Part shown: positions 6,019 to 61,382 of the stretch, in pieces
How the letters are laid out: every line of letters starts with the position of its first letter
Numbering within the stretch: the first letter of the stretch is position 1
DNA from: an uncultured virus (IMG/VR IMGVR_UViG_3300047160_023228)
Lineage: Duplodnaviria; Heunggongvirae; Uroviricota; Caudoviricetes
Reading direction: 5' to 3' (one strand)
DNA length: 64,000 nt
Virus record (IMG/VR): IMGVR_UViG_3300047160_023228
The notes under the pieces: generated by a model
What the model saw: only the letters and a program-made list of their open reading frames with translations
What the model was told of the DNA's origin: nothing
The model's database searches: none
Made by a program: the position numbers and the translations under genes

Positions 6019-6118
6019 CCGCGTGCCGGTGGCTCTGCTTCCGGAGGGAGCGCCAAAGCTAGCCCAAGGTGGACCCTGAGCCTGGTCGAAGGGGAAACCT
6101 TGGACTACAGAAAACCAG

Positions 6119-6752
6119 AGTTACTGTATCCCGAAGTCACTACATTTGAGTCGGAGCGACCAGCAGGACCGGGGTCCCCGCAGAAAGGTCTTCGTCTGCG
6201 GGGTGTAGCGAGCGCCGACCTTGACCAAAACCCGACTCTGGTTTTGCTCTAGTGTCCTGAGTCTAAAGTTCGCACCAGAAAAACTGCCGTCATCCTGAGC
6301 GAAGTTTGGCCGTTTTACGGCCAAACGCAGTCGAAGGACCTGTATCTACTTCTGTGACGAATTAGGACTCACCACACTAGGTCTCATAAATCCGCTTTGA
6401 AAGGGCACGGCTTTAGCCGTGCCGCAAGACTCCCCTCAAGACCGTGGGCTTTAGTGTCTGCATGAGAACTGGACGAAAGGGCCAACTTGCTAACTCGCTA
6501 TGTCGCGAAGCGACGCTAACTTGCTGTTTTTGTCTTAAAACCGATTCCTTTCCTGTTCCCGGATGCCAACCCGCGAGTTCTCACGCAGACTCTTTAGCCC
6601 CTGAGGGATGTCTTTGGCGGATGGCACGGTATTTATGAGATGACTTCTAGGGTCCTGTCGCTGTGAGGGCGTTACTGTGCATTGATCTTTAAACAGCGTG
6701 TCATCCTGAGCGAAGTTGATCGCGAAGCGATCAACGCAGTCGAAGGATCTGC
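6119..6752. repeat. cluster of several REP-like elements
   Basis: gtcatcctgagcgaag...cgcagtcgaagga at ~6289 and ~6700; ggcacggctttagccgtgcc at ~6404; ccccgcaga..tctgcgggg at ~6176; element shared with 60937. Confidence 0.75.
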
Positions 6753-10104: not shown

Positions 10105-10162
10105 TGGCGGACGAGGCGGGAATCGAACCCACAACCCCCGGCTTAGAAGGCCGGTGCTCTAT
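10105..10162 (-). pseudogene. displaced 3' part of host tRNA-Arg(UCU) at the left attachment site
   Basis: Minus strand ATAGAGCACCGGC-CTTCTAA-GCCGG-GGGTT-GTGGG-TTCGATT-CCCGC-CTCGTCC-GCCA; no tRNA 5' end upstream. Confidence 0.9.
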
Positions 10163-10297
10163 GAAGTTTCAGCCGGTGCTCTGAACACTTGCTGATTTCT
10201 TTCGAGCTTGGAGCGTCTGGCAACGCTTCTGTGTGGTTGTGTTTCCCGAACCGGGGCTGCAACCCCGATTCGTGTCCTATAGTGAAACACTCCGCCT
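10163..10297 (-). ncRNA. putative structured RNA of the left phage arm (5' part of an att-spanning tRNA-like/antisense RNA)
   Basis: Hairpins GUGUUU/GGACAC, GAAUCGGGG/CCCCGGUUC, AGCGU/ACGCU; 5' AGGCGGAG complementary to CUCCGCCU-ACCA in the right arm; boxes antisense to 52771-52795. Confidence 0.5.
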
Positions 10298-10387
10298 CCG
10301 CGCGTATGTGACGGGGAGCACAAAGTAACGTGACGCGCGGATTACTAGAGTCCTACGAAAATTGCAAGCGGAATCACGCCCCAATTG

Positions 10388-10573
10388 TTACTCTTCTGGT
10401 TCCTTCCCGCGGGGTGTGCGGTGGCTCACCAACTTGGAGTCACAAGTATAGCGGATGCAATAACGGATTGCGTTGGTCAGATCAAAGCCCTCCTGTTCCG
10501 CTAACTTCTGTAAATCCTTATACATTGCTGGAGCCAGGCCCAGGTTGATCCGTTTGCGTGTCATTGTCGCCAT
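10388..10573 (-). CDS. ribbon-helix-helix (CopG/Arc-like) DNA-binding protein
   Basis: RKRINLGLAPAMYKDLQKLAEQEGFDLTNAIRYCIR: alternating beta-strand plus two helices; divergent from the integrase. Confidence 0.7.
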   Translation of the reverse strand: MATMTRKRINLGLAPAMYKDLQKLAEQEGFDLTNAIRYCIRYTCDSKLVSHRTPRGKEPEE

Positions 10574-10686: not shown

Positions 10687-11859
10687 ATGATGGCCGATTC
10701 GAAAACACAAACTAGGGCCACGGCTACGGGCGGAAAGCTTTCACACACGCCCGACCATCAGGATTGCCCTGCCTGTAAGGCGGCAGATTTGCTCTTGGTT
10801 CAGATTGATTCTGATTTTTCCCGGCGTCTGTTCAGGGAAGCCGCGGAACTCTGGATGACGATTCGCCGGCGCGATAACAGCTTGAAAGCCCGCACCCACG
10901 AAACCAACACACAGTACATCGAGGCCCTGGGCCGATTCTTTGGTAACATGCGCCTCAATGACATCTCCCCCGGCCACCTCAAGATGTACCAGGACGCGCG
11001 GGCGAACAATCTCCTGATCGTTGCCGAAAAGGAAACCCACCCGTGGAAGCGCGCGGCCGGGCATTCGATCATCAACCACGAAATCTCCACCCTGGCGCAG
11101 ATCCTGAAGCACTGTAAGCTGTGGGATCGGCTTCGCCCGCTCTACTTCCCGCTCACCACCCCGAAGTGGAGTCCGCGCGAAGAAAAGATTTTGAGCGAAG
11201 AGGATGAACAGGATTTGTTTGAGAAAGCGGCCAAACATCCCGAATGCGCGCTTGCCTATTGGGTTGCGTGCATCACCAACAACACTTCCGCGGCGGGGTG
11301 CGAGTTGCGCGGGCTTCGCCTGAAACACATTCATCTTCGGCCCGGCAATGATATCTCCGAAATCTACGTGCCCTCGGACGCGGTGAAGAACGATGCCCGG
11401 CCGCGCAAGATCGCGTTGAACCGCACCGCGAAGTGGGCTGTGGAGCAATGCTATGGGCGCGCCCTCAAGTTGGGATCGTGCCAGCCCGATCATTACCTGT
11501 TCCCGTTGCGCCTCAACCGGGAGAAAACCACGGACGGCGCCAAGCACCGGGACAAGTACGATCCGACGCGGCCGGCTTCGCGGTGGTTCATCCGTAAGAG
11601 TTGGGAGAAGCTTCGCAAGGTGACGGGCTTTACGGAATTAAACCCGCACGATCTGCGCCATCAATGCATCACCCGTCTCTTGGAAAACGGCGTGGAACCG
11701 GAGACGGTTCGCTCCATCGCCGGGCACGTCACCCAACAGATGATGGAGTATTACTCCCACCTTCGCCGGCGGGTGAAGTACGAAGCGGTGATGGCGATTG
11801 AACTGGATGAGCAGCGGCGCCGCAAGCAAGGCCCGCAAGCGGTGCGCCGGTACGCCTAA
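10687..11859 (+). CDS. tyrosine recombinase/integrase homolog with atypical box I
   Basis: HDLRH, SIAGH, MMEYY; box I reads TSAAGCEL (no Arg); next to att. Confidence 0.85.
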   Translation: MMADSKTQTRATATGGKLSHTPDHQDCPACKAADLLLVQIDSDFSRRLFREAAELWMTIRRRDNSLKARTHETNTQYIEALGRFFGNMRLNDISPGHLKMYQDARANNLLIVAEKETHPWKRAAGHSIINHEISTLAQILKHCKLWDRLRPLYFPLTTPKWSPREEKILSEEDEQDLFEKAAKHPECALAYWVACITNNTSAAGCELRGLRLKHIHLRPGNDISEIYVPSDAVKNDARPRKIALNRTAKWAVEQCYGRALKLGSCQPDHYLFPLRLNREKTTDGAKHRDKYDPTRPASRWFIRKSWEKLRKVTGFTELNPHDLRHQCITRLLENGVEPETVRSIAGHVTQQMMEYYSHLRRRVKYEAVMAIELDEQRRRKQGPQAVRRYA

Positions 11860-11929: not shown

Positions 11930-12337
11930 TTATACCCCCCCCTGATTCGGCTTGGACGCTTCGCATCCCTTCCACGGGTCCTGATTCTCGAAGTAACACA
12001 GGAACGCGGCGTTGCAAATAATCGCGTCGGTGTTGGCGTCGTCGGTGTTGCCGTTGTCGATGTAATTGAGCAGGTGTTTCATTAGGTGATTGATGGTCGC
12101 CTTGCGGAACTCCGGGCCGCCCACCCGCCAGTTATTCTCCCCGTGGTTGCGTGCGCCCAATGCCAGGCGCCGCGCCAGGGCATCAATTGCTTCCTTGGGG
12201 ATGAGATCGTAACGCTCTTCCAACACCGAGCGCGTTGAGCCGTCTTCGAATACCGCCTTTGCCATTGTTCCCTTTCCTGGTTTTGAAATCGGACGATCCC
12301 CACAGCACGAAGCCGGTGTCTGAATCGTCGTACTCAA
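11930..12337 (-). CDS. dATP/dGTP diphosphohydrolase-like protein (DUF5664 type)
   Basis: RYDLIP..AI..LA..LALGA..HGENNW...H...H...CNA pattern; start uncertain. Confidence 0.75.
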   Translation of the reverse strand: MSTTIQTPASCCGDRPISKPGKGTMAKAVFEDGSTRSVLEERYDLIPKEAIDALARRLALGARNHGENNWRVGGPEFRKATINHLMKHLLNYIDNGNTDDANTDAIICNAAFLCYFENQDPWKGCEASKPNQGGV

Positions 12338-12352
12338 GCGTTGTTTCGTACA

Positions 12353-13486
12353 TTACCGATACCGGCGTTCGTAGAAGCCACGATCAAAGAACGGGAACCA
12401 CTCGGAAGCAAAGCGGGTGATGATGCCCCGCGTGTTTTGCTTGATGCGAATATCCCAGAAGCCCACGTGCGCGGCGATCTTCTTTTTGCGCATGAACAGG
12501 CTTTGATCTTCGGTTGTGCCGGCCTGAAGGCAATGCACTTCGCGCGGATAGCCGTACTCCGCCTTGTGGTAGTGCCCGATGATGAGCACCTGGGGCTTTT
12601 CCCCGCCCTGGTAGCTTTCCACGATCTTCTGGGCCGTGTAAGACGTGGCGTAGGCCGATCCACCGCCGGGATGGAGGACGCGCATCACCGATTCCCCGGC
12701 GCCGCATTTCAGCGCGACATCGGCCTCGCTGTACCCGAGGTACTCAAGATCACGCCGCCCGGCGCGCTCCGCCCGCATCTGAAGGTATTGGCCGGGAATG
12801 ATGCCCTCGCGTTGGGCATACCACCCTTCGTGATCGTCGCCATCGATGAACAGGGTCCGGATTCCCGCGCGGTGGGGGAAGTTATCAATGAAGTAATCGA
12901 ACTGGTTATCCATCCCCGGCGCGGTGACAAGCTCCGTCTTATTGAAGCGGGCTTCGCCGTCCACGTAGTTCCCGGCGTTGAGTGCGGTGGTGATCCCATT
13001 GCGTTCCGCGTAGTCGTACGCCGCATGGAGCACATCGAGGCGGGATTGCCGGTTGCACAGATGGTTGTCAGACGTGATCAGGAAGCGATGCGTCCATTCG
13101 GCGCGGGGATCGCCCTTGATCTCATGCCGGCCAGGCGCCAGGGCCGCGGTGGTAGTCATCTCGAATACCCCGCCGGGATATTCGGTAATCATCACCCCAC
13201 GCTCTTTCATTTCGGCCATCGTGCGCCGAAGAGTTGACACGTTCACGCCTAACTCTTGCGCGAGATCCTTTGCGGCCACCGCATCTCGGCGGAGGCAATC
13301 GCGGATTTTCTTTTCGATCTCTTCCGGGCCAACCACCGCCGGTTCGATCACGCCGCTATGGCGGTACTTGAGAACGGTGGTGTTGTGAAGGCCCAGGCGC
13401 TTGCCAATGGCCCGATCCGAAAGGCCGCGGCCGGAAAGCTCAACGATCTTGCGCTGCTTGCTTACAGGGACAGGCGGTGACGCCAT
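12353..13486 (-). CDS. calcineurin-like metallophosphoesterase with N-terminal HTH domains
   Basis: SDNH, AGNYVDG, GDDHE, H, GHYH motifs; two HTH-like segments; TAATG coupling to upstream gene. Confidence 0.8.
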   Translation of the reverse strand: MASPPVPVSKQRKIVELSGRGLSDRAIGKRLGLHNTTVLKYRHSGVIEPAVVGPEEIEKKIRDCLRRDAVAAKDLAQELGVNVSTLRRTMAEMKERGVMITEYPGGVFEMTTTAALAPGRHEIKGDPRAEWTHRFLITSDNHLCNRQSRLDVLHAAYDYAERNGITTALNAGNYVDGEARFNKTELVTAPGMDNQFDYFIDNFPHRAGIRTLFIDGDDHEGWYAQREGIIPGQYLQMRAERAGRRDLEYLGYSEADVALKCGAGESVMRVLHPGGGSAYATSYTAQKIVESYQGGEKPQVLIIGHYHKAEYGYPREVHCLQAGTTEDQSLFMRKKKIAAHVGFWDIRIKQNTRGIITRFASEWFPFFDRGFYERRYR

Positions 13487-13767
13487 TAGTGCCTCGCTAT
13501 CGCCAACAGGTGATACGCCACTTCGATCAGCCCCACCACCGCGGCCACCAGCCAACCCGCGCCGCCGGCGCGCTGTTTCAAGCTTTCCAACACGCCGATC
13601 CGTTCCTCGTGGCTTGCCACTTGCAGTTCGAGCCGCGGAATACGGCCCTGCGGGTTCTCTGATTTTTCGTCAGGTGTGCCGAACATCTTCGTGAGGATCA
13701 CGCGAAAATCCGCGCGAAGGCCGCGTACTTCGTCGGTGAGTTCATGGAAGTTATCGGTTGGCGCCAC
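13486..13767 (-). CDS. small coiled-coil protein with C-terminal TM (lysis region)
   Basis: GGAG RBS; heptad region, then AGWLVAAVVGLIEVAYHLL. Confidence 0.65.
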   Translation of the reverse strand: MAPTDNFHELTDEVRGLRADFRVILTKMFGTPDEKSENPQGRIPRLELQVASHEERIGVLESLKQRAGGAGWLVAAVVGLIEVAYHLLAIARH

Positions 13768-14262: not shown

Positions 14263-14460
14263 TTACTTGCCGGCCGGGTCCTTTGCGATCAGGCCCAGGA
14301 GCACGGTGGCAACCGCGGTGATGAGTTCTACCACCGTTCCCGTTCCCGCATGGCCGAGGGTGATGCCCTGGCCGCTGAGCGCGCCGGCAATCGCCACAAT
14401 GGCGATCAGGATGCCAGCGGCTGAAGTCTTGGGATGATTCCAGATATTCGAGAAACTCAC
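14263..14460 (-). CDS. holin (2 TM)
   Basis: 65 aa, two hydrophobic helices, overlaps endolysin stop. Confidence 0.7.
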   Translation of the reverse strand: MSFSNIWNHPKTSAAGILIAIVAIAGALSGQGITLGHAGTGTVVELITAVATVLLGLIAKDPAGK

Positions 14461-14828
14461 TCAATTACCTCCAGGCGATCATCGCCCTCGGTTGCTTTCA
14501 CCCGCACGTAAGCGCGCGTGGCGTGGTTCTGGATAATGCATCCTTCGCTGGCGGTGTGATTGCCGGCGGAGTTATCGCCGTGCAACATGAACCCATCGCG
14601 GCCGTGCATCTGATTGCCGGGATCGGGAACCAGGTCACACACGCACGGGCCTTTGTGCGCATCGTCGCGCCAGTTGCGGATGGCGTAGAAGCCGCGCGGG
14701 ATCGGCCCGAGGCGGTGCAACTCCTGATCGGTGGGTTGGTTCGCATGGTAGCCGTGCCCCGAGTAACCCACACCCGCAACCTTGCCATCCCGCGATAACT
14801 CACCCGTGCTTTGCCGATAGGTCCACAT
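14457..14828 (-). CDS. Tlde1/DUF2778-type L,D-transpeptidase-fold putative endolysin
   Basis: GYSG, GPIPRG, GRDGFMLHGD, ASEGCI motifs; next to holin. Confidence 0.8.
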   Translation of the reverse strand: MWTYRQSTGELSRDGKVAGVGYSGHGYHANQPTDQELHRLGPIPRGFYAIRNWRDDAHKGPCVCDLVPDPGNQMHGRDGFMLHGDNSAGNHTASEGCIIQNHATRAYVRVKATEGDDRLEVIE

Positions 14829-24550: not shown

Positions 24551-25069
24551 ATGCGCACGGCGGTTGCCCTGTTTGTCTTTGCTCTTGCCTCGGTTGCCTT
24601 CGCGGATGATGACTATCAAAAAACCGCTACTTACAATTGCGGGTTTGGACACGAAGAAACCCATGTGCTCATGCATCGGGATTCTCTGAAGGAACCATGG
24701 CAATTCGAGAATGAAAATGCGGCCAATTGGGTGACTCAGAATTGCAAGCCCGCAGATCGGGTCAAAAGGGTAACTCCCAAAAGCCATCAGGCTATCGAGA
24801 CTCCGCCCGCGTTCGCCCAATCAACACCACCCGTCACGCCGGCGGTGAATACTTCCCCCGATCCGGGAGTGCCGTACTTCGGCCTCGCGCTCGTGGTTCT
24901 CACGTTGTTGATCTACTTCATCCCCACGCTGGTATCGGGGGCGCGCGGGTGTAAGGCGCACGGCGGGATCGTGGTGGTCAACATCTTCCTGGGATGGACG
25001 TTCATCGGGTGGGTGGTGGCGTTGGCCTGGGCCGCAAGCGGAGAGCCGCGGCCCAAGGTTACAGCTTAG
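24551..25069 (+). CDS. superinfection immunity membrane protein (T4 Imm-like C-terminal domain)
   Basis: IYFIPTLV…I.VVNIFLGWTFIGWVVALAWA; signal peptide; AGGAG RBS; TGcTAAACT extended -10 upstream. Confidence 0.85.
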   Translation: MRTAVALFVFALASVAFADDDYQKTATYNCGFGHEETHVLMHRDSLKEPWQFENENAANWVTQNCKPADRVKRVTPKSHQAIETPPAFAQSTPPVTPAVNTSPDPGVPYFGLALVVLTLLIYFIPTLVSGARGCKAHGGIVVVNIFLGWTFIGWVVALAWAASGEPRPKVTA

Positions 25070-39716: not shown

Positions 39717-40904
39717 TCACTTCGCCAATCCGCGCAAAGAATCCACGTGCTCAGCCCACCGGGCAAGCATGTCCCGCCGTTGTTCGGCGTATTCAGCGCG
39801 GTTGTAGATGCCCTTCACACCCGGCGGCTTATGGTTCAAACACTTCTCAATCCACTTCTCTTCGAATCCCATCTCACTCAACCTTGTGGTTGCTGTACGT
39901 CGCAGATCATGCACAGTGAAATGGGGCAGCCGTACGGCCACCCGCGCAAGTTGTTTATTCAGTGTGCTTTTGGAGATGGATGCCCATGTTCCGCCTGGCG
40001 CCGGCAACACACAGCCTTGCGGCGCATCGCCCTTCATCAGCGAACGAAACAGCCGAACCGCGCGGGTGGATAGATAGACGATCTGGCCTTGCCCCATCTT
40101 GTCATGGGCCTCGGGGATCGCCCATTCGCCACGGCTGAAATCGATCTCCGTCCATTCGGCCAGGCGCAACGCGCTCTTTCGCACCAACGTCAAAAGAATC
40201 AGTTCCAACGCCGCTTTGTACCGGGCTTCGATGGGCGCCCGATCCAACGCGCGCAGAAACACGCCGATTTCGGCCTCGTTCAAAGCACGATCCCGTTTCA
40301 CGCGCTCCGCAATGTACTTGGGAGATATCTCACGGGCCGGGTTAGCTTCCATCACCCCGCACACAATCGCGTAATCGCACAGCCGCTTGAGGATGTCCCG
40401 GATTGCAAGGGCCGAAGATCGCTTGCCTTCGTCGCGCCGTTCGAAGACGATTTCCCGCACGTGATCGGTGTTGATCGAACTCATGGGAAGGTGGCCGATG
40501 CGCGGCAACACGTCGCGTTCAAGATAGCGGCGCACATCGTTCGGAGCCAATCTATCTTTGGCAACCACTTCGCGTAAGTAACGCTCCGCAAAGTCTTTAA
40601 GCGTAGCGCGTTTCAGCTTCCCCAACTTCGCCTGGCGCTTGAGATCGTCCGGAGAGATGCCCTTCTTGATCGATGCGGCAAGCTCATCTCTTTTCTTTCG
40701 GGCTTTTTCGAGCGTGACGGTGGGATATCGCCCCAGGTTGATCTTTCCCGGCTTGCCGTGCAGCCGATAGCGAAACCGCCAACTCTTCACGCCGCTTGGT
40801 TGGATTTCCATGCCCAAACCGCGGCCATCGGTGACGGTGTAACGCCGATCTTTGGGCGCGAGTTCGTCAATGTCCGCAACTTTCAGGGATTTTCTTGTTC
40901 CCAT
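39717..40904 (-). CDS. P4-family tyrosine integrase
   Basis: Arm-binding DGRGL…SGVKSW…LGRYP; R (LVRKS), HDLRR, CLNH, Y all present. Confidence 0.93.
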   Translation of the reverse strand: MGTRKSLKVADIDELAPKDRRYTVTDGRGLGMEIQPSGVKSWRFRYRLHGKPGKINLGRYPTVTLEKARKKRDELAASIKKGISPDDLKRQAKLGKLKRATLKDFAERYLREVVAKDRLAPNDVRRYLERDVLPRIGHLPMSSINTDHVREIVFERRDEGKRSSALAIRDILKRLCDYAIVCGVMEANPAREISPKYIAERVKRDRALNEAEIGVFLRALDRAPIEARYKAALELILLTLVRKSALRLAEWTEIDFSRGEWAIPEAHDKMGQGQIVYLSTRAVRLFRSLMKGDAPQGCVLPAPGGTWASISKSTLNKQLARVAVRLPHFTVHDLRRTATTRLSEMGFEEKWIEKCLNHKPPGVKGIYNRAEYAEQRRDMLARWAEHVDSLRGLAK

Positions 40905-41018
40905 GTACCCAAAGTGCGCACCCAACGCGAAAACGGGCAACTAATTCCCTTAGAAATCAAAGCTGGAATACTTAATGAGCTAGAAAATCCCCGATTCCCG
41001 CAAGTAAACTGAATCCGT

Positions 41019-41096
41019 GGCCCCGTAGCTCAGCCCGGATAGAGCATCTGCCTTCTAAGCAGAGGGTCGTTGGTTCGAGTCCAACCGGGGTCACCA
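41019..41096 (+). tRNA. tRNA-Arg(UCU), phage-borne, intact
   Basis: GGCCCCG/CGGGGTC acceptor, GCTC/GAGC D stem, TCTGC-CTTCTAA-GCAGA, GTTGG-TTCGAGT-CCAAC, ACCA. Confidence 0.95.
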
Positions 41097-41150: not shown

Positions 41151-42353
41151 TCAGGCTTCTTCGAGCGCGTTGACTAAGAGCGGTTGGATCGTGCCATCAC
41201 GGTTGATCCTGTCCAACATGGCATCGCCGGCGGCTTCAGTCCCATCCCATCCCCGCGGCCAGGTATTGGCCGCAATGAGTTCCCGGATGCGCGCCTCTTC
41301 CTCAGAGTTGATTAGATCGATTGTTGGCCTACTCAACCGCCGGGCGGCTTCGTTGATTTCAGCCTGAATGCCAAGCACTGTTTTGAGGCCGCACAACCGG
41401 GCTTCCATAGTCAAGGGTCCAACCCGCTGTGGATTCGCCGCCGGGGTTCCATCCTTTCGCAATTCGATCTCCGTCTTACGTAAGCGGTTCGCATGGTCAA
41501 ACGAAAGATCGTGGTACAGCGGTTTCAACCGGGTAAGCGGAGTGAGATACGACCATTGAGTATCACGAATCACGGCCTGTAACGCGGTGTCCCGACTAGC
41601 AAGCGGACAACCGATGCACCCGGTTCGCGCGTTCAATTCCTCGGCCTGGGCGCCGCCATAAGCAACAGCAATCGGAATGGTCGGGAAGCCGAGATCCGGA
41701 GCGTGAGCCGTGAGCCATGCCCAAACATGGCACACCCGCCAATGAAGCAAGGGAGCAAGTGTGTCCGCAACCGCTTCCGGCGTAGCTTCCTGAAACCATC
41801 CCTGACCACATTCGGCGCCGTCACGGCTGCAACTCAAGATGATCCGTGCATCCCGTTGCGCGGACTCGCCGATCCGAACGCCCGTGATCATCAGAAGTTT
41901 TTCGCCGGCCCGGGCGCGCAGAGTTTCCAATGCGTGAACCATCGGCTCAATCTTGATCTGGGCCGTACACCACCGAAACCTGTTTTTGGGCGGTGGAACG
42001 CCGCGGCCAAGCATGTAGACAAAGAACCGCTCATCGATCTCCGGAAGCACAACCCGCGTGTCTATGCCGCGTTCTCTCAACTCCGCCATTACCTTTGTGG
42101 CCGCCACTTGAAGCGGTGGTATCTCCATTCGCGTATCGGCATAGAGCACCGTCAGGCTTTCCGGCGATGGTATCTGTTCCGTTTCGATCAGGTGAGCCAC
42201 GATGGTCACGGTTGCGCTGGAATCCTTGCCGCCCGAATATGCAATAGCCCAATGCCGGTGTGTCTGTGCGTAAGTTAAAAGCGATTGCTTTGTGAGTTCA
42301 ATCGCTTCTTTCAGTGTGGTTCGGGCGCCCTCAAACAGAGTGGGAGCAATCAT
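41151..42353 (-). CDS. DndC-like PAPS reductase-family protein
   Basis: YSGGKDS, ADTRME, LGRGVPPP..RFRWCT..IKIEP, GVRIGES..R, RTGCIGC. Confidence 0.82.
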   Translation of the reverse strand: MIAPTLFEGARTTLKEAIELTKQSLLTYAQTHRHWAIAYSGGKDSSATVTIVAHLIETEQIPSPESLTVLYADTRMEIPPLQVAATKVMAELRERGIDTRVVLPEIDERFFVYMLGRGVPPPKNRFRWCTAQIKIEPMVHALETLRARAGEKLLMITGVRIGESAQRDARIILSCSRDGAECGQGWFQEATPEAVADTLAPLLHWRVCHVWAWLTAHAPDLGFPTIPIAVAYGGAQAEELNARTGCIGCPLASRDTALQAVIRDTQWSYLTPLTRLKPLYHDLSFDHANRLRKTEIELRKDGTPAANPQRVGPLTMEARLCGLKTVLGIQAEINEAARRLSRPTIDLINSEEEARIRELIAANTWPRGWDGTEAAGDAMLDRINRDGTIQPLLVNALEEA

Positions 42354-43966
42354 CCGATCACCGCCTCAACCAACGCTTTCGCGGTGTGAGTCGGAACGGC
42401 GTTGCCAATCTGTTTCACGATGTCATCCCGCTTGCCGGTGAAACGATAGTGATCCGGGAAGCCCTGGGCGCGGGCAAGCTCACGCGGCTGCAACATCCGA
42501 AAGCGGATATCGAGCCGGTAACGCTTCACTTCGGGCTGAATCAGGGCGAACCGTTCTTTAGTGGTGACAGTTGGAACAGGATCGGCGGCGCCGCTCAAGT
42601 TCTCTGTGCCGTAGTAACAGATCAGGAACGGTTCGCAGATCCCCACTCCAATCTTCGAAGTTGCGGTGGGCATCGGTTCATCAACAGACTGTGCGGCGCG
42701 CGGCGTCTCACCTTCGCCGTGGTTCACCGTGACCATGTACGGCTGAATCAGGGCGGTATGGTTCTCTGTGACCACGGTGGCCAGAGGATCACCGACGCTT
42801 CGCGGTTCGCGTCCTTTGCCTTCCGGGCCGCCAGCTTGCATAAGAAATGGTTCAACGAGGGATAGATCACAACTTGTAGCTGTCACCGTCCGAACGGGCT
42901 TATCGATGCTTTGTGGCTGATCATTCTTCCGCGGATGTGGGAGTAAGAACGGTTGCACGATCCCGGTGTTGGCCTTCGTTACCACCGTGGGAATCGGCTC
43001 ATCGATCCCGCGGTTCTTCCCGCTGTCCGATCCCTGCTGATCCCATTGCACGAGATACGGCTCAACCAACCCGTAGTGATTCCCGCCGGCGGTGACGGTG
43101 TGTAACGGCTCATCCACCGCCTGGGTGGTCCCGGTTCCGCGCATCACTACGAGAAACGGGCGAAGATTCTCCGCCACACACCGCCCGAGATCGATATCCA
43201 AACCGCAAAACCGCTTCAACCCTGCCTGAATCCGTGAGAGCGTCTTTTTCGCTAAAGGCCGCTTGCGATCAAAGATGCTTTGCGAATCCATCTTCCAATC
43301 GATGATTTCGCGGGCGGTGCGCCACGGTTGCCTCTGATCCGGGATTAGTTCATTGCGCAACCGCGTGTGTGTCGGCTTCGGCCAGTGAATCTGTTTGCCG
43401 CCGCGGCGGGCGATGATGAACAGGCGCCGCCGGGTGGTAGGATCGCCGTAATCCGCACACGTGAGAATGCGCCATTCCACGCGATAGCCCAAAGCTTTCA
43501 GGGATGAGACGAACTGCAGGAACAGTTCGCCGCGCTTGGATTTCAACGGGCGGCCGTTCGCTCCCAACGGCCCCCACGAAGTGAATTCCGGCACATTTTC
43601 GAGGATGATGTTATCGATGTACAGGGCTTCGGCGAACCGCAAAACGTGCCAGGCCGAAGAGCGCGATTGATCGGACATCGGCTTTCCGCCGCGCGCAACG
43701 GAATGATGAGTGCATTCCGGCGAGGCGCACATCACGTCCAACCGGCCGCCGGGAATCAGCTTTCGCGGGTCCACGTTATCGATTCCGGTACAAGCGTGTT
43801 GCGCGTAAGGATGGTTGATGCTGTGGGTATCGATTGCAACCTGCCAATGGTTCACGGCCACAAGACTGAGATCAGCCCCGATCTCGTTGGCCGCCATAAG
43901 TAAGCCCTGCGATGTTCCGCCTGCTCCGCAAAAAAGGTCTGCTGCCTTGATCTCTTTCTTTTTCAC
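42350..43966 (-). CDS. DNA (cytosine-5) methyltransferase with repeat-expanded variable region
   Basis: DLFCGAGG, SPECT, ENVPEF, R.R, QIGNAV; repeated S.D.P..TVT units. Confidence 0.92.
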   Translation of the reverse strand: MKKKEIKAADLFCGAGGTSQGLLMAANEIGADLSLVAVNHWQVAIDTHSINHPYAQHACTGIDNVDPRKLIPGGRLDVMCASPECTHHSVARGGKPMSDQSRSSAWHVLRFAEALYIDNIILENVPEFTSWGPLGANGRPLKSKRGELFLQFVSSLKALGYRVEWRILTCADYGDPTTRRRLFIIARRGGKQIHWPKPTHTRLRNELIPDQRQPWRTAREIIDWKMDSQSIFDRKRPLAKKTLSRIQAGLKRFCGLDIDLGRCVAENLRPFLVVMRGTGTTQAVDEPLHTVTAGGNHYGLVEPYLVQWDQQGSDSGKNRGIDEPIPTVVTKANTGIVQPFLLPHPRKNDQPQSIDKPVRTVTATSCDLSLVEPFLMQAGGPEGKGREPRSVGDPLATVVTENHTALIQPYMVTVNHGEGETPRAAQSVDEPMPTATSKIGVGICEPFLICYYGTENLSGAADPVPTVTTKERFALIQPEVKRYRLDIRFRMLQPRELARAQGFPDHYRFTGKRDDIVKQIGNAVPTHTAKALVEAVIG

Positions 43967-44913
43967 TTTCCGTCCTTCGGGAACATCTTCCATTGGCTGT
44001 TATCGAGAAACGATCCGGCGTCTTTCTTGCCCACCTTGTACACCGCCGCGGCACCGTCATTCCCATCAAGCTGGTAGGTGTACAACCCGAACTCCGGATC
44101 AGGGCGATCCCGGCCGGCAACGGCGTGAAACGTTCCGTCATACGAAACCAGGCTGTGCGCGCTGCAACGGTGGAACTCCTGATCCACGCGCATCTGACGC
44201 GCCGGGAACCATTCGCCCCATTGCTTGAAAAAGAACGGGACGCCGGCCACCTGGCATTCGACGCGTACATCGCGCGCCCAATCGGGATGCATCGGCCTGG
44301 CCGCCGATCCGCTCTCCCCGCCACATATCACCCAATCCACGTGCTCGAATGCGCGGCTCAACACCAGGTCAAGCGGTCCCAGGGCGGGTTCGTAGCTCAC
44401 GAAGAACATGGGAACCGAAGGATGCCGGGCGCGAAGCCGTGCCACGTGCGCCAGGCGTTCTTCCAACCGCGTCTGATCTTCGGCGGTGAATCCCGGCTTG
44501 ACGTTCGCGGGCCAGCTCCGCAACCACCGATCCGGCATGAACGCTTCGTAGTTGTGCGCGCGCTTGGTCAGGATCAGGAATTGGAGGTTGCTGCAAACAT
44601 CGGCCTCAAGGTAGAAACGTTGACGCTGATCCCGCGGGCCATCGTCATCAAGAAAATCGGCCAGGGACGCGACGAACACACGGCGCATCACGCCGGCTGC
44701 TTTGGACGCGCGGTCCCACTTGCGAAGCTGATTCCAGTTGGCAAGCGAAGTGATCTTGCGCGGCGCACCCGGCCCCCACCCGCCGCCGGTCCAGTTGTAG
44801 AGCTTGTTTTGGGTTTCGGCGTAGCAATTCTTACAGCCCGGCGAAACCTTGGTGCATCCGATCCACGGATTGAAGGTGTGATCCGTCCACTCGATTTTGG
44901 AATTCTCTCCCAT
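43963..44913 (-). CDS. Gp37/Gp68 (DUF5131) family protein
   Basis: SKIEWTDHTFNPWIGCTKVSPGCKNCYA, LTKR, WVICGGESG, FFKQWGEW. Confidence 0.92.
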   Translation of the reverse strand: MGENSKIEWTDHTFNPWIGCTKVSPGCKNCYAETQNKLYNWTGGGWGPGAPRKITSLANWNQLRKWDRASKAAGVMRRVFVASLADFLDDDGPRDQRQRFYLEADVCSNLQFLILTKRAHNYEAFMPDRWLRSWPANVKPGFTAEDQTRLEERLAHVARLRARHPSVPMFFVSYEPALGPLDLVLSRAFEHVDWVICGGESGSAARPMHPDWARDVRVECQVAGVPFFFKQWGEWFPARQMRVDQEFHRCSAHSLVSYDGTFHAVAGRDRPDPEFGLYTYQLDGNDGAAAVYKVGKKDAGSFLDNSQWKMFPKDGK

Positions 44914-48292: not shown

Positions 48293-49456
48293 TTACTTCT
48301 CCAGCCGCATCGGCATCACAACGTAGTCGAGATGATCCCCTTCGGCGGGATCGGCGGAGAACATCAGCGCGCTTTGGTTGGTATCCGGCAAGCAAATGCG
48401 GACATCGCCGGATAGGAGCTTGAACAGGTCCAACAGGTATTCGCCGTTGACGCCAACCGAGAACGGCTGTTTGGGTGTACCTTGGCAATCCACCGTCTCG
48501 CGGGCTTCGCCGCTCTGTGCGTCCGATCCTTCGAGGGTGATCTCTTTATCGAACGTGAGTTTGACGCTGCAGGAACGTTCATCGCTGAGCAATAGGCAAC
48601 GTTCCAGGCTTGAGCGGAGTTCGCCGGCCTTCGCCGTGATCACCGTATTGTTCTTCGGCACAACCGCTTCCCAATTGGGAAATGGCCCGGCAAGTTTCTT
48701 GTGCGCCACGTGAACCGGAGTCTCACCCGGCAACGCGGCGATGATCTGTTGATCGTCGAAGGTGACATCCACGCCGCCATCGGAGAGCATCGGCAACAGG
48801 GCCTTGACCATGCCGGCTGGGATCAGGAGGTTCTTGAGCTTGTCTTCACAGGAGATCGAATAGATCATCATCGTGTGCCCGTTGGTGGCCACGAACTTCA
48901 GGTGCGATCCATCTCCCACGGCCAGAATGCCGTTGAGCGTGTAGCGGCTGGCTTCCTTGCTCACGGCGATCTGTGCGAAGCGAAGCGCGCGGGCAACACC
49001 CTCCTGGTCAAGCGTGATGGCGCCGCCATTGGCTTCGAACGAAATCTGCGGCCATGAACCAACACCCATGATCGGAAGCACGGCGCGGGCACGGGCGCAT
49101 TGCAGCGTTGCCCGGCGATCCGTGAGGCTGAGCTTCACTTCATCGCCCGTGAGAAGCTTCGTCCAATCGAGCAGTTTTTCCGCGGGGATCACCACAGGCT
49201 TATCGATGGTGGTGGATTCGGGAACCGCGGCGCGGATGGCCAGGTCAAGGTTGGTGGCTTCGAGGATCAGGCCCGCCGGCGTCTGTTCCACCTTGACGCA
49301 GGTCAGAATCGGGATGGTGGTTTTGCGCTCGATGGCCGCCGAAACAGTCTTGAGCGCGTGTTTCAAATTGGAGAGAGATACGGTGGCCTTCGAGGGCGCG
49401 GATTCCGGCTTGTCAACCGTTGCGGCCTCGGGCTTGTCTGTTACCGCTGTTGCCAT
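48293..49456 (-). CDS. dnaN: DNA polymerase III beta sliding clamp homolog
   Basis: KTTIPILT, ATNLD, SRYTLNG, ATNGH, FPNW..V.P, YVVMPMR. Confidence 0.9.
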   Translation of the reverse strand: MATAVTDKPEAATVDKPESAPSKATVSLSNLKHALKTVSAAIERKTTIPILTCVKVEQTPAGLILEATNLDLAIRAAVPESTTIDKPVVIPAEKLLDWTKLLTGDEVKLSLTDRRATLQCARARAVLPIMGVGSWPQISFEANGGAITLDQEGVARALRFAQIAVSKEASRYTLNGILAVGDGSHLKFVATNGHTMMIYSISCEDKLKNLLIPAGMVKALLPMLSDGGVDVTFDDQQIIAALPGETPVHVAHKKLAGPFPNWEAVVPKNNTVITAKAGELRSSLERCLLLSDERSCSVKLTFDKEITLEGSDAQSGEARETVDCQGTPKQPFSVGVNGEYLLDLFKLLSGDVRICLPDTNQSALMFSADPAEGDHLDYVVMPMRLEK

Positions 49457-52382: not shown

Positions 52383-52756
52383 CCGCGCACCGCCTTGGTG
52401 AACGTTTCCAGACTCATGCCCTCGTGAAACGGATGAGCGTTTAATGCACTATTCAGTTGGGAGGCTTTGTGGAGAAGCTTGCGGGCATTGCCGCGGCGCA
52501 CGGTATCGGTGGCCTTGCGCCACTTGCCGATGAAGATACCGGCGTCGGCGTGCTCGAAATCAGCCTGGAAGAGATAAAGCCGGGTTGCTCCGCAATCGAG
52601 GCAGGTCTGGCGGTTGTTGAACGGAAGGCTGAGATGGGAATGCCGGCACGGAAAAAAGAAATCGGCCAGGCGCGTCAGCACCGTTTGGAGGGCAGATCTG
52701 TACCCCGTTCGGGTTACTTCTGCCGGTGCTCTAAGAGTGAGGGCGGGGCTTTGCAC
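52379..52756 (-). CDS. first early-operon gene, Zn-binding hypothetical protein
   Basis: AAGGAG RBS; CRH…CLDCG. Confidence 0.65.
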   Translation of the reverse strand: MQSPALTLRAPAEVTRTGYRSALQTVLTRLADFFFPCRHSHLSLPFNNRQTCLDCGATRLYLFQADFEHADAGIFIGKWRKATDTVRRGNARKLLHKASQLNSALNAHPFHEGMSLETFTKAVRG

Positions 52757-52796: not shown

Positions 52797-52873
52797 TGGT
52801 AGGCGGAGCCGGTGTGAATCCGGCAACCCCCGGCTTAGAAGGCCGGTGCTCTATCCGATTGAGCTACTCGCCC
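52797..52873 (-). tRNA. chimeric tRNA-Arg(UCU): host 5' part plus non-canonical phage 3' end, probably impaired
   Basis: GGGCGAG-TA-GCTC…GAGC-A-CCGGC-CTTCTAA-GCCGG-GGGTT-GCCGG-ATTCACA-CCGGC-TCCGCCT-ACCA; T loop not TTCRA; acceptor has an A.C mismatch and two G.U. Confidence 0.7.
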
Positions 52874-58300: not shown

Positions 58301-60796
58301 CACAATGGCGTGGATACGCACCCCATCCACTTCCACCTCTATGACGTGCAAGTTATCAACCGCGTCACCTGGGACAACATCATCATCCCGCCCGATACCA
58401 ACGAACTGGGCTGGAAGGATACCGTTCGCGTCAGCCCGCTGGAAGATACGCTGGTTGCGCTGCGGCCTGTCACTCCCAGCCTACCCTTCCAGATACCGAA
58501 CAGCATCCGCCCGCTGAACCCCGGCATGCCGGTCGGATCGATGATGGGCTTCAGCAGCGTCGGCCCCGACGGCAACGCGACCACATCCAACATCGTCAAC
58601 GACATCGTGAACTTCGGGTGGGAGTACGTGTGGCACTGCCACATTCTCAGCCACGAAGAAATGGACATGATGCGCCCCGTGTCGTTCGCAGTCCCGCCCG
58701 CGGCTCCTGCGAACCTGGTCGCCAACTCCAACGGCACCGCAGTGGCGTTGAATTGGACCAATGCCGCGGCGAATGCCACGGGCTACACCTTGCAACGCGC
58801 TACCGACAGCGCCTTTACGGCTAACCTCCAGACATGGCGTGTAGGCATGGTGAACGCTTACACCGATTCCAACGCCAATCCCGGCTCAACCTACTACTAC
58901 CGCGTGTTTGCGACCAACACCGTCGGCAGCACCATGGACTCCGGGTTTACCCAATCGCCGGGCGGCAATTCCATGCCCACGATGACGGTCAACTCCGGGT
59001 ACTCGAACACCGCGCCTGTCCTGGCCGGCAACCCGGTTATCGGAGTGGCGCCTGCCGCGCTCAACTTCGGAAATGTGCTGCTGAACACCAGCGCCGGGCC
59101 GCAGTCCGTCACACTCTCCAACACGGGCGGCGTGGCTCTGACCATCAATAGCATCGGGCTGGGCGGCGCAAATGCCGGCCAGTTTGCGATGCCGGCGTCG
59201 GCTACTCCGTGCGGCTCAACCTTGAACGCGGGCGGCAATTGCGTGATCAACGTGACATTCTCGCCGACAACTCTCGGCGCGCAGTCCGCGGCGATCACCA
59301 TCGCGACCAACGATCCGTCCAGCCCGGTATTGACCGTGCCGGTAACCGGTTCCGGCATCGCGAGCACGACCTTAGCCCTCAGCGCCCCGGCCATCACCTA
59401 CGGACAGAACGGCGTGGTCACGCTAGCCGTGTCCTCCACGCAGGTGAACCCGGTCGCCGGGAACATAACCCTAACTGTTGACGGTGGAGCCCCGCTCAGC
59501 CAGGTCCTCGCAAACGGCTCTGCAACCTTCACGCTAACCGCGCCAGGCGCGGGAACCCACACCCTCACCGCAAACTACGCGGCCCAGGGCGGCGTATCGG
59601 CGGCCTCGGCAACCGGCACACTCGTGGTCAACTCGGCAGCGCTCACCATTACGGCGAGCAGCGCGTCACTGGCCTATGGCGCACCTGTTCCAGCCATCAC
59701 TCCGGCGTATAGCGGTTTCGTGCTCGGACAAGGGCCCACAAACCTGACGGGAACAGTTAGCTGCTCGACCACGGTGACGAGCACCAGCCCGGTGAGCGGC
59801 AATCCGTATTCCAGCACCTGTTCGGGAGCGGCAAGTACGAATTACGCCATCAAGTACGTCGCGGGCACAGTCACTGTAAACCAGGCCTCGACAGCCACAG
59901 CCATTACCTCTAACTTGCCGAATCCATCGATCCCGGGGCAGATCGTCACCATAACGTTCAAGGTGACTCCGCAAGTCAGCGGCAGTCCGACCGGAAGCGT
60001 GAAGGTCCTGGCCAGCACCGGCGAGAGCTGCTCGGCAATTCTTCCGGCCGCGAGCTGCACACTCAGCTTCGCAGGCTCGGGCTCGCGGACGCTCACGGCC
60101 ACCTATGGCGGCGACAGCAACTTCACCGGATCGGTGTCGCCTGCAGCCAACCAGCAGGTGGTCAGCGGGGTTGTTCTCAGCACGACTTCGCTGCTGTTCG
60201 GCAATCAGCTTGTGAACTCAACCTCGGCCAGCCAGGCAGTCACAATCGCCAACGTTGGCACAACGACTCTCACCATCAATGGGTTTAGTTTCGGCGGATT
60301 GAACCCGGCGGACTTCACCCAGACAACCAACTGCGGCAGAACGTTGCGAGCTGGACAGAACTGCCGCGTGAACGTTTCGTTCCGGCCTGGCGCCGCGGGT
60401 GTGCGCATGGCAACCCTTATCATCAGCGACTCCGACATAAGCAGTCCGCAAACGGTGTCGTTGACAGGTACGGGCGTGCAACCTACCGCGACGCTAACCC
60501 CGGCTTCCTACAACTACGGCACCGTGCTGCGCGGGCGGACAGCCTCCTATGGCTTCACGCTGTCCAACACCAGCGTAGCTTCGATGACCATCAACCGGAT
60601 CAGCATCACTGGAACAAACGCCAACCAGTTCTCGCAGCGCAGCAACTGCGGCAACACTCTTGGCGCGGGCCTGAGCTGCACGATCACGGTGACGTTCGCG
60701 CCGACGCAACGCGCTACTGCTAACGCTACCCTTAGCGTGAGCAATAACGCAGTGGGAAGTCCGCACACTGCCTCGCTCACCGGTTTGGGGCAGTAA
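55316..60796 (+). CDS. large secreted multicopper oxidase with FN3 and multiple Ig-like domains
   Basis: HLHGG, YHDH, HPIHFH, WHCHILSHEEMDMM; signal peptide; C-terminal Ig/ASPM-like repeats. Confidence 0.92.
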   Translation: MKRALVLMLLVLSAALGSSQAPDPAKNPHYFGPYPNWANSPLTTVDASIQLTDTCGNGAGTGASAVALVDSKGSITGVTVTSQGAGYTCPPDVSITSTYGNGAAAHATFAATSGYISSISLVNGGTNYFAPVVVINGNGTGATADATVDPYSGAITSISLTNPGSGYTSATISISDGGGTGTGAMATATVSTSTIGVIVDAAGIGYRTPGGLRKFVDTLPGLGPSAANNLGQYVSVAHPDTTTYPGSDYYEIAVVEYSRKLHSDLSPTKLRGYVQLNNGTDSNGQNTIAPDGPQFLGATIVATKDRPVRILFRNNLPTGEAGNLFLPVDTTMMGAGMGPDMGGMKETDSSSVFDGVRNPMCGNAGAKPMGCYTENRATLHLHGGLTPWISDGTPHQWTVPATESTMYEKGVSVSNVPDMWYDANGATLSECAGQNTCAVANATNNPGKGALTFYYTNQQSARLLFYHDHSWGITRLNVYAGEAAGYLITDNTEKTLTAPGGALDASDPALGLGIPLVIQDRTFVPSAAQLATQDPTWDAARWGTEGDFWYHHVYMPAQNPADPTGASPFGRWMYGPWFWPPANQATTPYQPIPNPYYDPACDPANAPNGFCEPPMIPGTPNISVGMEQFNDTPLVNGTAYPTMTVEPKAYRFRLLNAANDRFFNLQWYVADSSGTEVALKASDVAAAQVDPNVFPTPDTNISPAGPSWLQIGSEGGFLPTPATIPNQPITWITDPTRFDYGNVDQHSMLIAPAERSDVIVDFSKFAGKTLILYNDAPAAFPARQASYDYYTGDPDNTDIGGAPTTVPGFGPNTRTIMQVKVAGTLTKASAFSLSKLVTAFAHNANGTGVFESGQNPVIVGQAGYNRAYGSTFTTSGDCSNPKTTTKCDGFARINLQGGDLFTFDTLSGKKLSIPLQPKALHDEMNSTTFDEYGRMTANLGVEAVPANAGAQNVVLYPYVNPATEMIDGTNLPSASGIKIAPIATANDGTQIWKITHNGVDTHPIHFHLYDVQVINRVTWDNIIIPPDTNELGWKDTVRVSPLEDTLVALRPVTPSLPFQIPNSIRPLNPGMPVGSMMGFSSVGPDGNATTSNIVNDIVNFGWEYVWHCHILSHEEMDMMRPVSFAVPPAAPANLVANSNGTAVALNWTNAAANATGYTLQRATDSAFTANLQTWRVGMVNAYTDSNANPGSTYYYRVFATNTVGSTMDSGFTQSPGGNSMPTMTVNSGYSNTAPVLAGNPVIGVAPAALNFGNVLLNTSAGPQSVTLSNTGGVALTINSIGLGGANAGQFAMPASATPCGSTLNAGGNCVINVTFSPTTLGAQSAAITIATNDPSSPVLTVPVTGSGIASTTLALSAPAITYGQNGVVTLAVSSTQVNPVAGNITLTVDGGAPLSQVLANGSATFTLTAPGAGTHTLTANYAAQGGVSAASATGTLVVNSAALTITASSASLAYGAPVPAITPAYSGFVLGQGPTNLTGTVSCSTTVTSTSPVSGNPYSSTCSGAASTNYAIKYVAGTVTVNQASTATAITSNLPNPSIPGQIVTITFKVTPQVSGSPTGSVKVLASTGESCSAILPAASCTLSFAGSGSRTLTATYGGDSNFTGSVSPAANQQVVSGVVLSTTSLLFGNQLVNSTSASQAVTIANVGTTTLTINGFSFGGLNPADFTQTTNCGRTLRAGQNCRVNVSFRPGAAGVRMATLIISDSDISSPQTVSLTGTGVQPTATLTPASYNYGTVLRGRTASYGFTLSNTSVASMTINRISITGTNANQFSQRSNCGNTLGAGLSCTITVTFAPTQRATANATLSVSNNAVGSPHTASLTGLGQ

Positions 60797-60936
60797 CAGA
60801 CTGGGGCGGGGGGAGCTACTCCCCCTCTCCCCCGCACCATTAATGCGAATTTCCTCGTGCAGCGGCGCCGGGAGGGAGCGATCCCTCCCGCTTTTTTGTT
60901 CGTTCAGGTCCGGGATCTCGCTAAAGCAAAACCGCA

Positions 60937-61382
60937 GTTACTGTATCCCGAAGTCACTCCATTTGACTCGCCGCGACCAGCAGCGAACGCCGGCCTTGAC
61001 CAAAACCCGACACGACACACCTGTTCTGTTTCTGATCAAGGCAGTCCGCCAAAACATTTGCGCACAATTATCAACCGATTTGCCACAATGGAATCGGGGT
61101 ACTGGCGCGCTCTTTGCCTCTCAGGGAATCCGAACCAACAAGCCCCGCTCCATGGTTGCATGACTGAAGCTCGTTTTGAACCAATCCGGCGGCTTTAAGC
61201 TCGGTTTCGCGCCATTCAGGAGCCATTAAGACCGGCTTTAGAGCCATTCAGGAGCCATTCAAACTACAGCTATCTGCAAGAAAATAGAAGTGATATTTGT
61301 CAAATCGGCACCCCCCCCGGGGGAACCAGCAGGGAGCGCCGACCTTGACCAAAACCCGACAGGACACACCTGCTCTGGTTTC
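60937..61382. repeat. dispersed repeat copies and 11-mer tandem repeats
   Basis: ttactgtatcccgaagtcact…ccttgaccaaaacccgac shared with 6121; second partial copy ~61325; gccattcagga units ~61210-61260. Confidence 0.7.

Follow-up and report, generated by a model that had tools for sequence, protein, structure and literature searches.

A prophage in tRNA-Arg(TCT) with an integrase gene next to its attachment site

Within the window (the whole 64,000-nucleotide stretch of DNA that was analysed) lies a 42,692-bp prophage in which Pfam identifies terminase, portal, capsid and tail genes. Its ends are marked by an exact 31-bp repeat at 10132-10162 and 52824-52854, which spans the anticodon arm of tRNA-Arg(TCT), and the first copy of this core lies 524 bp upstream of the gene for P0001, the integrase studied here. 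The attachment sites and the integrase genes are laid out as follows.

10105-10162, minus strand: attR, the host 3' half of tRNA-Arg(TCT), with the core at 10132-10162 (repeat and tRNA search)
10172-10183, plus strand: accessory core-type site GCCGGTGCTCTG on the phage side of attR (sequence comparison)
10687-11859, plus strand: tyrosine integrase P0001 (Pfam, AlphaFold model, Foldseek)
39717-40940, minus strand: P4-like tyrosine integrase P0121, with an arm-binding domain and all catalytic residues (Pfam, residues)
41019-41096, plus strand: phage-borne tRNA-Arg(TCT), sharing its isotype with the integration target (tRNA search)
52722-52733, plus strand: accessory core-type site on the phage side of attL (sequence comparison)
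52797-52873, minus strand: attL, the host 5' half of tRNA-Arg(TCT) joined to a degenerate phage 3' half, with the core at 52824-52854 (repeat and tRNA search)

A 12-mer of the core has one further copy at each end, to the phage side. All four of its exact copies in the window lie at the att ends, and when up to one mismatch is allowed the window holds 6 matches against 0.76 expected. In relatives that target tRNA-Val(TAC), the accessory copy matches the Val core (16 and 4 hand-picked regions).

The tRNA-Arg(TCT) at attL is degenerate, with the T loop ATTCACA, an acceptor mismatch and an Rfam score of 50.4 bits; the phage's own tRNA-Arg(TCT) scores 67.8 bits. This pairing resembles tRNA-dependent lysogeny as outlined in the part of PMC10865867 used here, but the core in our case is 31 bp long. 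The same internal tRNA occurs in the related element G004, and in G031, G023 and G051 the attL tRNAs look ordinary and no tRNA sits beside the second integrase. A permissive ARAGORN run returned noise.

The gene at 10687-11859 is a stop-free frame encoding 390 amino acids. P0001 matches both PF00589 (56 bits, against a cut-off of 27.1) and Phage_int_SAM_3 in Pfam, consists of core-binding and catalytic domains, and has no Pfam match to an arm-binding domain. An AlphaFold model built from a 110-sequence alignment has a mean pLDDT of 90, and its Foldseek matches include XerA, IntI4, Tn1549 Int, Cre and lambda Int. Near the N terminus, residues 20-30 (window 10744-10776) form an HxxxHxxCxxC motif that recurs in 103 of the 120 closest homologs (best 120 of 386), 55 of the 149 distant representatives listed and 2 of the 117 sister proteins described below; it is possibly a metal-binding motif, sited where arm-binding domains usually lie.

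The box I arginine is absent across the P0001 family

According to Gibb et al. (2010), only 91% of tyrosine recombinases have the box I arginine (Arg I), and whether the remainder have another geometry or are inactive was left open there. The residues of P0001 that bear on this question are listed below.

11293-11295, plus strand: Ala203 (GCG), in the column of the canonical box I Arg (profile alignment)
11302-11304, plus strand: Glu206, the box I acidic residue (141 of 141 R238-type representatives)
11386-11388, plus strand: Lys234, the catalytic lysine, on the beta2-beta3 hairpin (141 of 141 R238-type representatives)
11398-11400, plus strand: Arg238 (Lys+4), proposed stand-in for the box I Arg (exclusion pattern, trees)
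11647-11658, plus strand: box II, His321-x-x-Arg324 (residue alignment)
11725-11754, plus strand: His347 to Tyr356, with the nucleophile Tyr356 at 11752-11754 (residue alignment)

Columns were assigned with a profile of 140 family members aligned to the structures 5hxy, 6en0 and 4a8e. The family profile runs without a gap through box I against XerA (5hxy, TGVRVGEL), Tn1549 Int (6en0, TGLRISEL) and 4a8e, and places T200-S-A-A203-G-C-E206 of P0001 on T-G-x-R-x-x-E. Thus, A203 occupies the Arg I column, and its codon is at least two substitutions away from every Arg codon. A preliminary description of this DNA had reported the missing arginine with its GCG codon more than one substitution from Arg, an intact HxxR, GH and Tyr in a clean frame, and a position adjacent to att, and we find all of these (G346 precedes H347).

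Arg was found at column 203 in 0 of the 120 closest homologs (best 120 of 386), which instead carry A (77), S (35), V (5) or other residues (3). The loss is therefore not due to chance or to a sequence error. A profile search reached 431 clusters (50% identity) at E values up to 1e-30, of which 150 were listed, 149 of them new, and among the matches listed Arg stands at 203 in only 4 of the 144 distant cluster representatives that could be scored. The preliminary description had proposed aligning homologs to see whether the loss extends to the whole family, and it does. The rest of the catalytic set is retained: in the 141 representatives with R238, E206 and K234 are each present in 141, R324 in 136 of 136 ungapped sequences and Y356 in 136 of 137, and Y356 is found in 120 of 120 close homologs (best 120 of 386). 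The second-box His (His II) is looser, being H in 67 and Y in 55 of the 141. It would be unexpected for a derivative that does nothing but bind DNA to retain the nucleophile across 30-60% identity.

Viral and metagenome loci were fetched with patterns that contained an Arg-less box I, and so do not serve as evidence that Arg I is absent; R238 is present in 79 of the 80 metagenome loci kept (of 151). A genome scan with a single protein found nothing, and among cultured phages there was no relative above 24% identity over most of its length. The genome loci of close relatives all come from Acidobacteria (16/16).

Arg at position 238 and Arg at position 203 exclude one another

The family shares the motif K234-N-x-x-R238-x-R240, and the state of column 238 mirrors that of column 203. 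In the close set (best 120 of 386), 119 proteins have R238 only and 1 has neither arginine. The 149 representatives listed comprise 139 with R238 only, 4 with R203 only, 1 with neither (P0169, which also has Phe in the Tyr column) and 5 that are gapped and unscorable, one of which (P0163) has K203 and G238. A sister set seeded from the four R203 representatives, and hence not independent of them, is R203-only in 117 of 117 proteins, and its residue at 238 is G in 115 and A in 2. Scanning genomes with P0227 yielded 69 loci, of which 54 could be scored: 40 R203-only, 12 R238-only and 2 with neither, the latter being weak and distant matches. Across all proteins scored in the close, representative, sister and P0227-scan sets, none has both R203 and R238.

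We then asked how the two states are distributed on trees. With the trait columns removed, a FastTree of 162 rows (8 of the 120 close homologs, 133 of the 149 representatives after 16 fragments were dropped, 20 of the 117 sisters, and P0121 as outgroup) places the R203 rows in three separate lineages among the R238 rows. Independent pairs are concordant in 3 of 3 cases, too few for the sign test (p 0.25) to be informative, and a rough, length-weighted estimate of the chance that three gains land on six loss branches is 3e-5. In an IQ-TREE analysis of 36 rows, picked after the FastTree result had been seen, three changes are required and a single R203 clade is rejected (AU p 1.1e-5). On these reconstructions, whose root is unreliable, at least two of the three R203 lineages must be separate switches. 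The closest natural swap pair, P0176 and P0258, is 51% identical. As a control, 45 columns are at least 80% conserved in the 146 non-R203 representatives, and only column 238 is lost in all three R203 lineages.

Three other arginines were considered as stand-ins and set aside. The preliminary description had suggested a rewired active site, naming the Arg in ELRG as an example; the general idea gains support through R238, but the ELRG arginine itself (R208) persists in two of the three box I Arg-bearing lineages, all of which have lost 238. R240 is retained in all three, and R303 varies (76 of 141 R238 representatives) and does not track Arg I.

A position for R238 near the active site is spatially plausible, since in Cre Glu176 bonds Arg173 and the Lys201 backbone, holding the beta2-beta3 loop beside the site (PMC2943603, in the part used here), and Tn1549 Int (6en0) has Gly at Lys+4. 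The exclusion could nevertheless be steric instead of catalytic: P0001 would then be an active integrase in which R238 is a mere packing or DNA-binding partner, and the role of Arg I would be spread over R208, R240 and R303 or be dispensable. That none of R208, R240 and R303 varies among the 120 closest homologs (best 120 of 386) is in keeping with such an arrangement, as is the tolerance of Cre for His at Arg I. Yet these residues behave as just described, R240 being equally present in Arg I-bearing relatives, and 238 alone tracks the loss of Arg I; moreover, Cre R173A loses activity (both Cre results from the same part of PMC2943603). We therefore regard a purely steric explanation as unlikely.

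The tRNA target follows the Arg-less integrase and not the second integrase

The second integrase of this prophage, P0121, has an intact box I and the Arm-DNA-bind_3 domain, which P0001 lacks (Pfam), and BLASTP finds no match between the two proteins. Its gene lies 29 kb from att, between the early genes and the small terminase gene and co-directional with the late genes. Intact P4-like integrases far from att are also found in G003, G004, G005, G019, G023, G031, G051 and G053, and they assort independently of the att-side integrase. Candidate roles for them include a resolvase, alternative insertion and regulation.

Target tracking was examined in ten elements with a second recombinase, including two outliers (G053 and G039) and one with a trimmed att. 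The att-side integrases of the four Arg(TCT) elements are 62-72% identical to one another and those of the three Val(TAC) elements 72-96%, against 55-61% between the groups. The second integrase of the window, by comparison, comes closest (72%) to the second integrases of two Val elements, and it is only 46-51% identical to the Arg ones. Thus, the tRNA target follows the Arg-less protein, not the P4-like integrase. The identity matrix has G053, whose Arg target is in the opposite orientation, and G039 as outliers, and they are neutral on this point. Insertion into tRNA-Arg(TCT) in that opposite orientation, with the tRNA 5' half beside int, is seen in G053 (C78 23791 and 59832-59908), L019, L035 and L054.

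Relatives of P0001 are the only recombinases of some elements

Forty-nine virus records carry relatives of P0001; 11 are at least 90% complete, although provirus ends may be trimmed. The Arg-less integrase is the sole PF00589 match in 5 of these 11, none of the five having a serine recombinase (0/5), and a second tyrosine recombinase is present in the other 6, this phage's own record included. Among 51 loci with at least 400 bp of upstream flank, 25 have a tRNA half no more than 1.5 kb upstream and the other 26 have no tRNA att under the filter used, and a tRNA piece was found in 40 of 80 metagenome loci (25 TCT, 14 TAC, 1 TTT); both locus sets contain near-copies. Both states of the family, R203 and R238, occur at tRNA anticodon-arm sites.

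Two small islands, L132 (2973 bp) and L120 (6064 bp), lie between tRNA-Pro(GGG) duplications, and the only recombinase in each is an R238-type protein, 37-38% identical to P0001. These islands could have been inserted in trans. The integrase frame runs through the tRNA-Pro att site in both (L120:5641-6858, L132:5581-7128), so the C terminus of the integrase would change on excision. A third locus, L122, holds two inverted copies of an R238-type integrase with inverted tRNA-Pro(TGG) pieces, which may be a real duplication or an assembly artefact. One candidate sole-integrase case was discarded: the 43.6-kb, tRNA-Val-bounded element G052 also has a complete 496-aa recombinase and a 174-aa fragment. 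G054 was set aside as well; no att was found near its gene, the only tRNA-Arg being 26 kb away.

These observations bear on a further possibility, namely that P0001 is a non-catalytic att-binding accessory, regulator or directionality factor, while catalysis is left to the P4-like integrase (39717-40940) or to a host enzyme. The preliminary description had likewise raised a repurposed regulator or directionality factor. An intact second integrase is indeed present in this phage and in 5 other near-complete records, inactivity is one option for Arg I-less enzymes in the part of Gibb et al. (2010) used here, and SroF offers a precedent for a repressor with a recombinase fold. However, SroF is without the tyrosine (bioRxiv 2025.11.27.690993, as far as used here), whereas here Tyr, Lys and Arg II are near-invariant; the second integrase, encoded 29 kb away from att, does not follow the target and is missing from 5 of 11 near-complete records and from the two bounded islands. 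An accessory role for P0001 is accordingly disfavoured, and we consider it highly unlikely. Recent decay of this one prophage copy, which the preliminary description had linked to close homologs all keeping Arg, has the missing residue and nothing further to recommend it and is scarcely credible, being excluded by the clean frame and by the lack of Arg at column 203 throughout the best 120 of 386 homologs.

A proposed mechanism and its relation to known recombinases

In our assessment P0001 is quite probably the active, tRNA-targeting tyrosine integrase of this prophage, with the role of Arg I moved to R238 on the beta2-beta3 hairpin. We infer both that the protein is catalytically active and that R238 contacts the scissile phosphate. 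P0001 would bind inverted core sites on either side of the tRNA-Arg(TCT) anticodon loop and use normal tyrosine chemistry, in which Y356 would attack, K234 and R324 would play their usual roles, and H321, H347 and E206 would contribute. The guanidinium usually provided from box I would be given by R238, reaching into the gap left at the small residue 203. The extra core-type sites may organise attP and set direction in place of arm sites, perhaps helped by the TGTGA-N6-(T/G)CACA box and the divergent ribbon-helix-helix-like protein described below.

The hairpin of tyrosine recombinases moves between active and inactive protomers. With both the Lys and the Arg I equivalent on it, the family might have a different catalytic switch, in which hairpin motion toggles the protomer or the Arg is donated to a neighbouring protomer, and the family would have changed from one active-site architecture to the other three times or more. 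This is a speculative extension to which we give only a small chance.

The closest parallel is with IntDOT/Int_CTnDOT, active integrases that lack the box I Arg and in which an Arg further downstream replaces it functionally (Smyshlyaev et al. 2021, PMC8138268, in the sections used here). The P0001 family is similarly without the box I Arg and has an Arg downstream instead. In the Int_CTnDOT profile, however, Arg is enriched at node 280 and Lys at node 282, placing the Arg at Lys-2, and Lys+4 has no Arg preference in the part of the PMC8138268 supplement used here; in the P0001 family the Arg stands at Lys+4, and just 2 of 259 proteins have Arg at Lys-2, where P0001 has Ala. Thus, the Lys+4 Arg would be a solution separate from that of Int_CTnDOT. 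In those same sections, Int_CTnDOT has an arm-binding domain and is found mainly in Bacteroidetes, whereas P0001 has no Pfam arm-binding match and close relatives in Acidobacteria. IntDes has a shifted first Arg and Tyr in place of the first His (PMC8138268, same sections), and Tyr is likewise found at the first His in 55 of 141 P0001-family representatives, P0001 itself keeping H321. By its description there, IntDes is confined to Desulfovibrio and has an arm-binding domain, which sets P0001 apart from it.

Like the arm-less XerA, Cre and integron IntI, P0001 has a core-binding and catalytic fold and keeps Glu, Lys, HxxR, His and Tyr, but where they have Arg I in box I it has Ala, with Arg at Lys+4. 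It differs from P4-like integrases in the absence of Arm-DNA-bind_3. With SroF, a repressor of SPbeta-like phages, the family shares an integrase fold minus a catalytic residue; unlike SroF, it retains the tyrosine and is located at att sites (bioRxiv 2025.11.27.690993, in the part used here). In the literature searched, we found no description of a Lys+4 Arg or of the P0001 family.

P0001-family phage integrases of soil bacteria thus appear, from their sequences, to be working enzymes with a rewired active site rather than broken genes. The family would offer a specific, testable answer to the question raised in the portion of Gibb et al. (2010) used here, with a second Arg position distinct from that of IntDOT. 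Annotation rules that equate loss of the box I Arg with inactivity would give the wrong verdict on a considerable number of Acidobacteria integrases (the profile search reached 431 clusters at E values up to 1e-30, 144 of them scored). Compact, arm-less integrases acting at conserved tRNA anticodon loops could also become integration tools for Acidobacteria, which have few genetic tools.

Flanking features and cargo

Two further features lie between attR and the integrase gene.

10307-10322, unstranded: near-palindrome TGTGA-N6-GCACA between attR and int (recurs in relatives)
10388-10573, minus strand: divergent 61-aa open reading frame, probable ribbon-helix-helix protein (Arc-like match, 27 of 65 loci)

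The near-palindrome resembles a CRP/FNR consensus, and TGTGA-N6-(T/G)CACA was found in 29 of 258 loci, in most cases between att and int. The 61-aa protein has a weak Arc-like PHROG match (E 0.005) and an RHH_1 lead in the Atlas, its divergent frame is present in 27 of 65 loci, and it is a candidate regulator or directionality factor. A promoter scan returned 0 sites.

Cargo identified by Pfam (11930-13555, 14457-14828, 24551-25069, 41151-44913 and 48293-49456) comprises a dATP/dGTP diphosphohydrolase, an HTH-bearing 400-aa protein, a Tlde1 domain, a superinfection immunity protein on the opposite strand, a PAPS-reductase domain, a C5 methylase, DUF5131 and a full DNA sliding clamp. The host sequence contains dispersed intergenic repeats of 30-56 bp that are 89-97% identical (6111-6236, 60928-61031 and 61325-61380).
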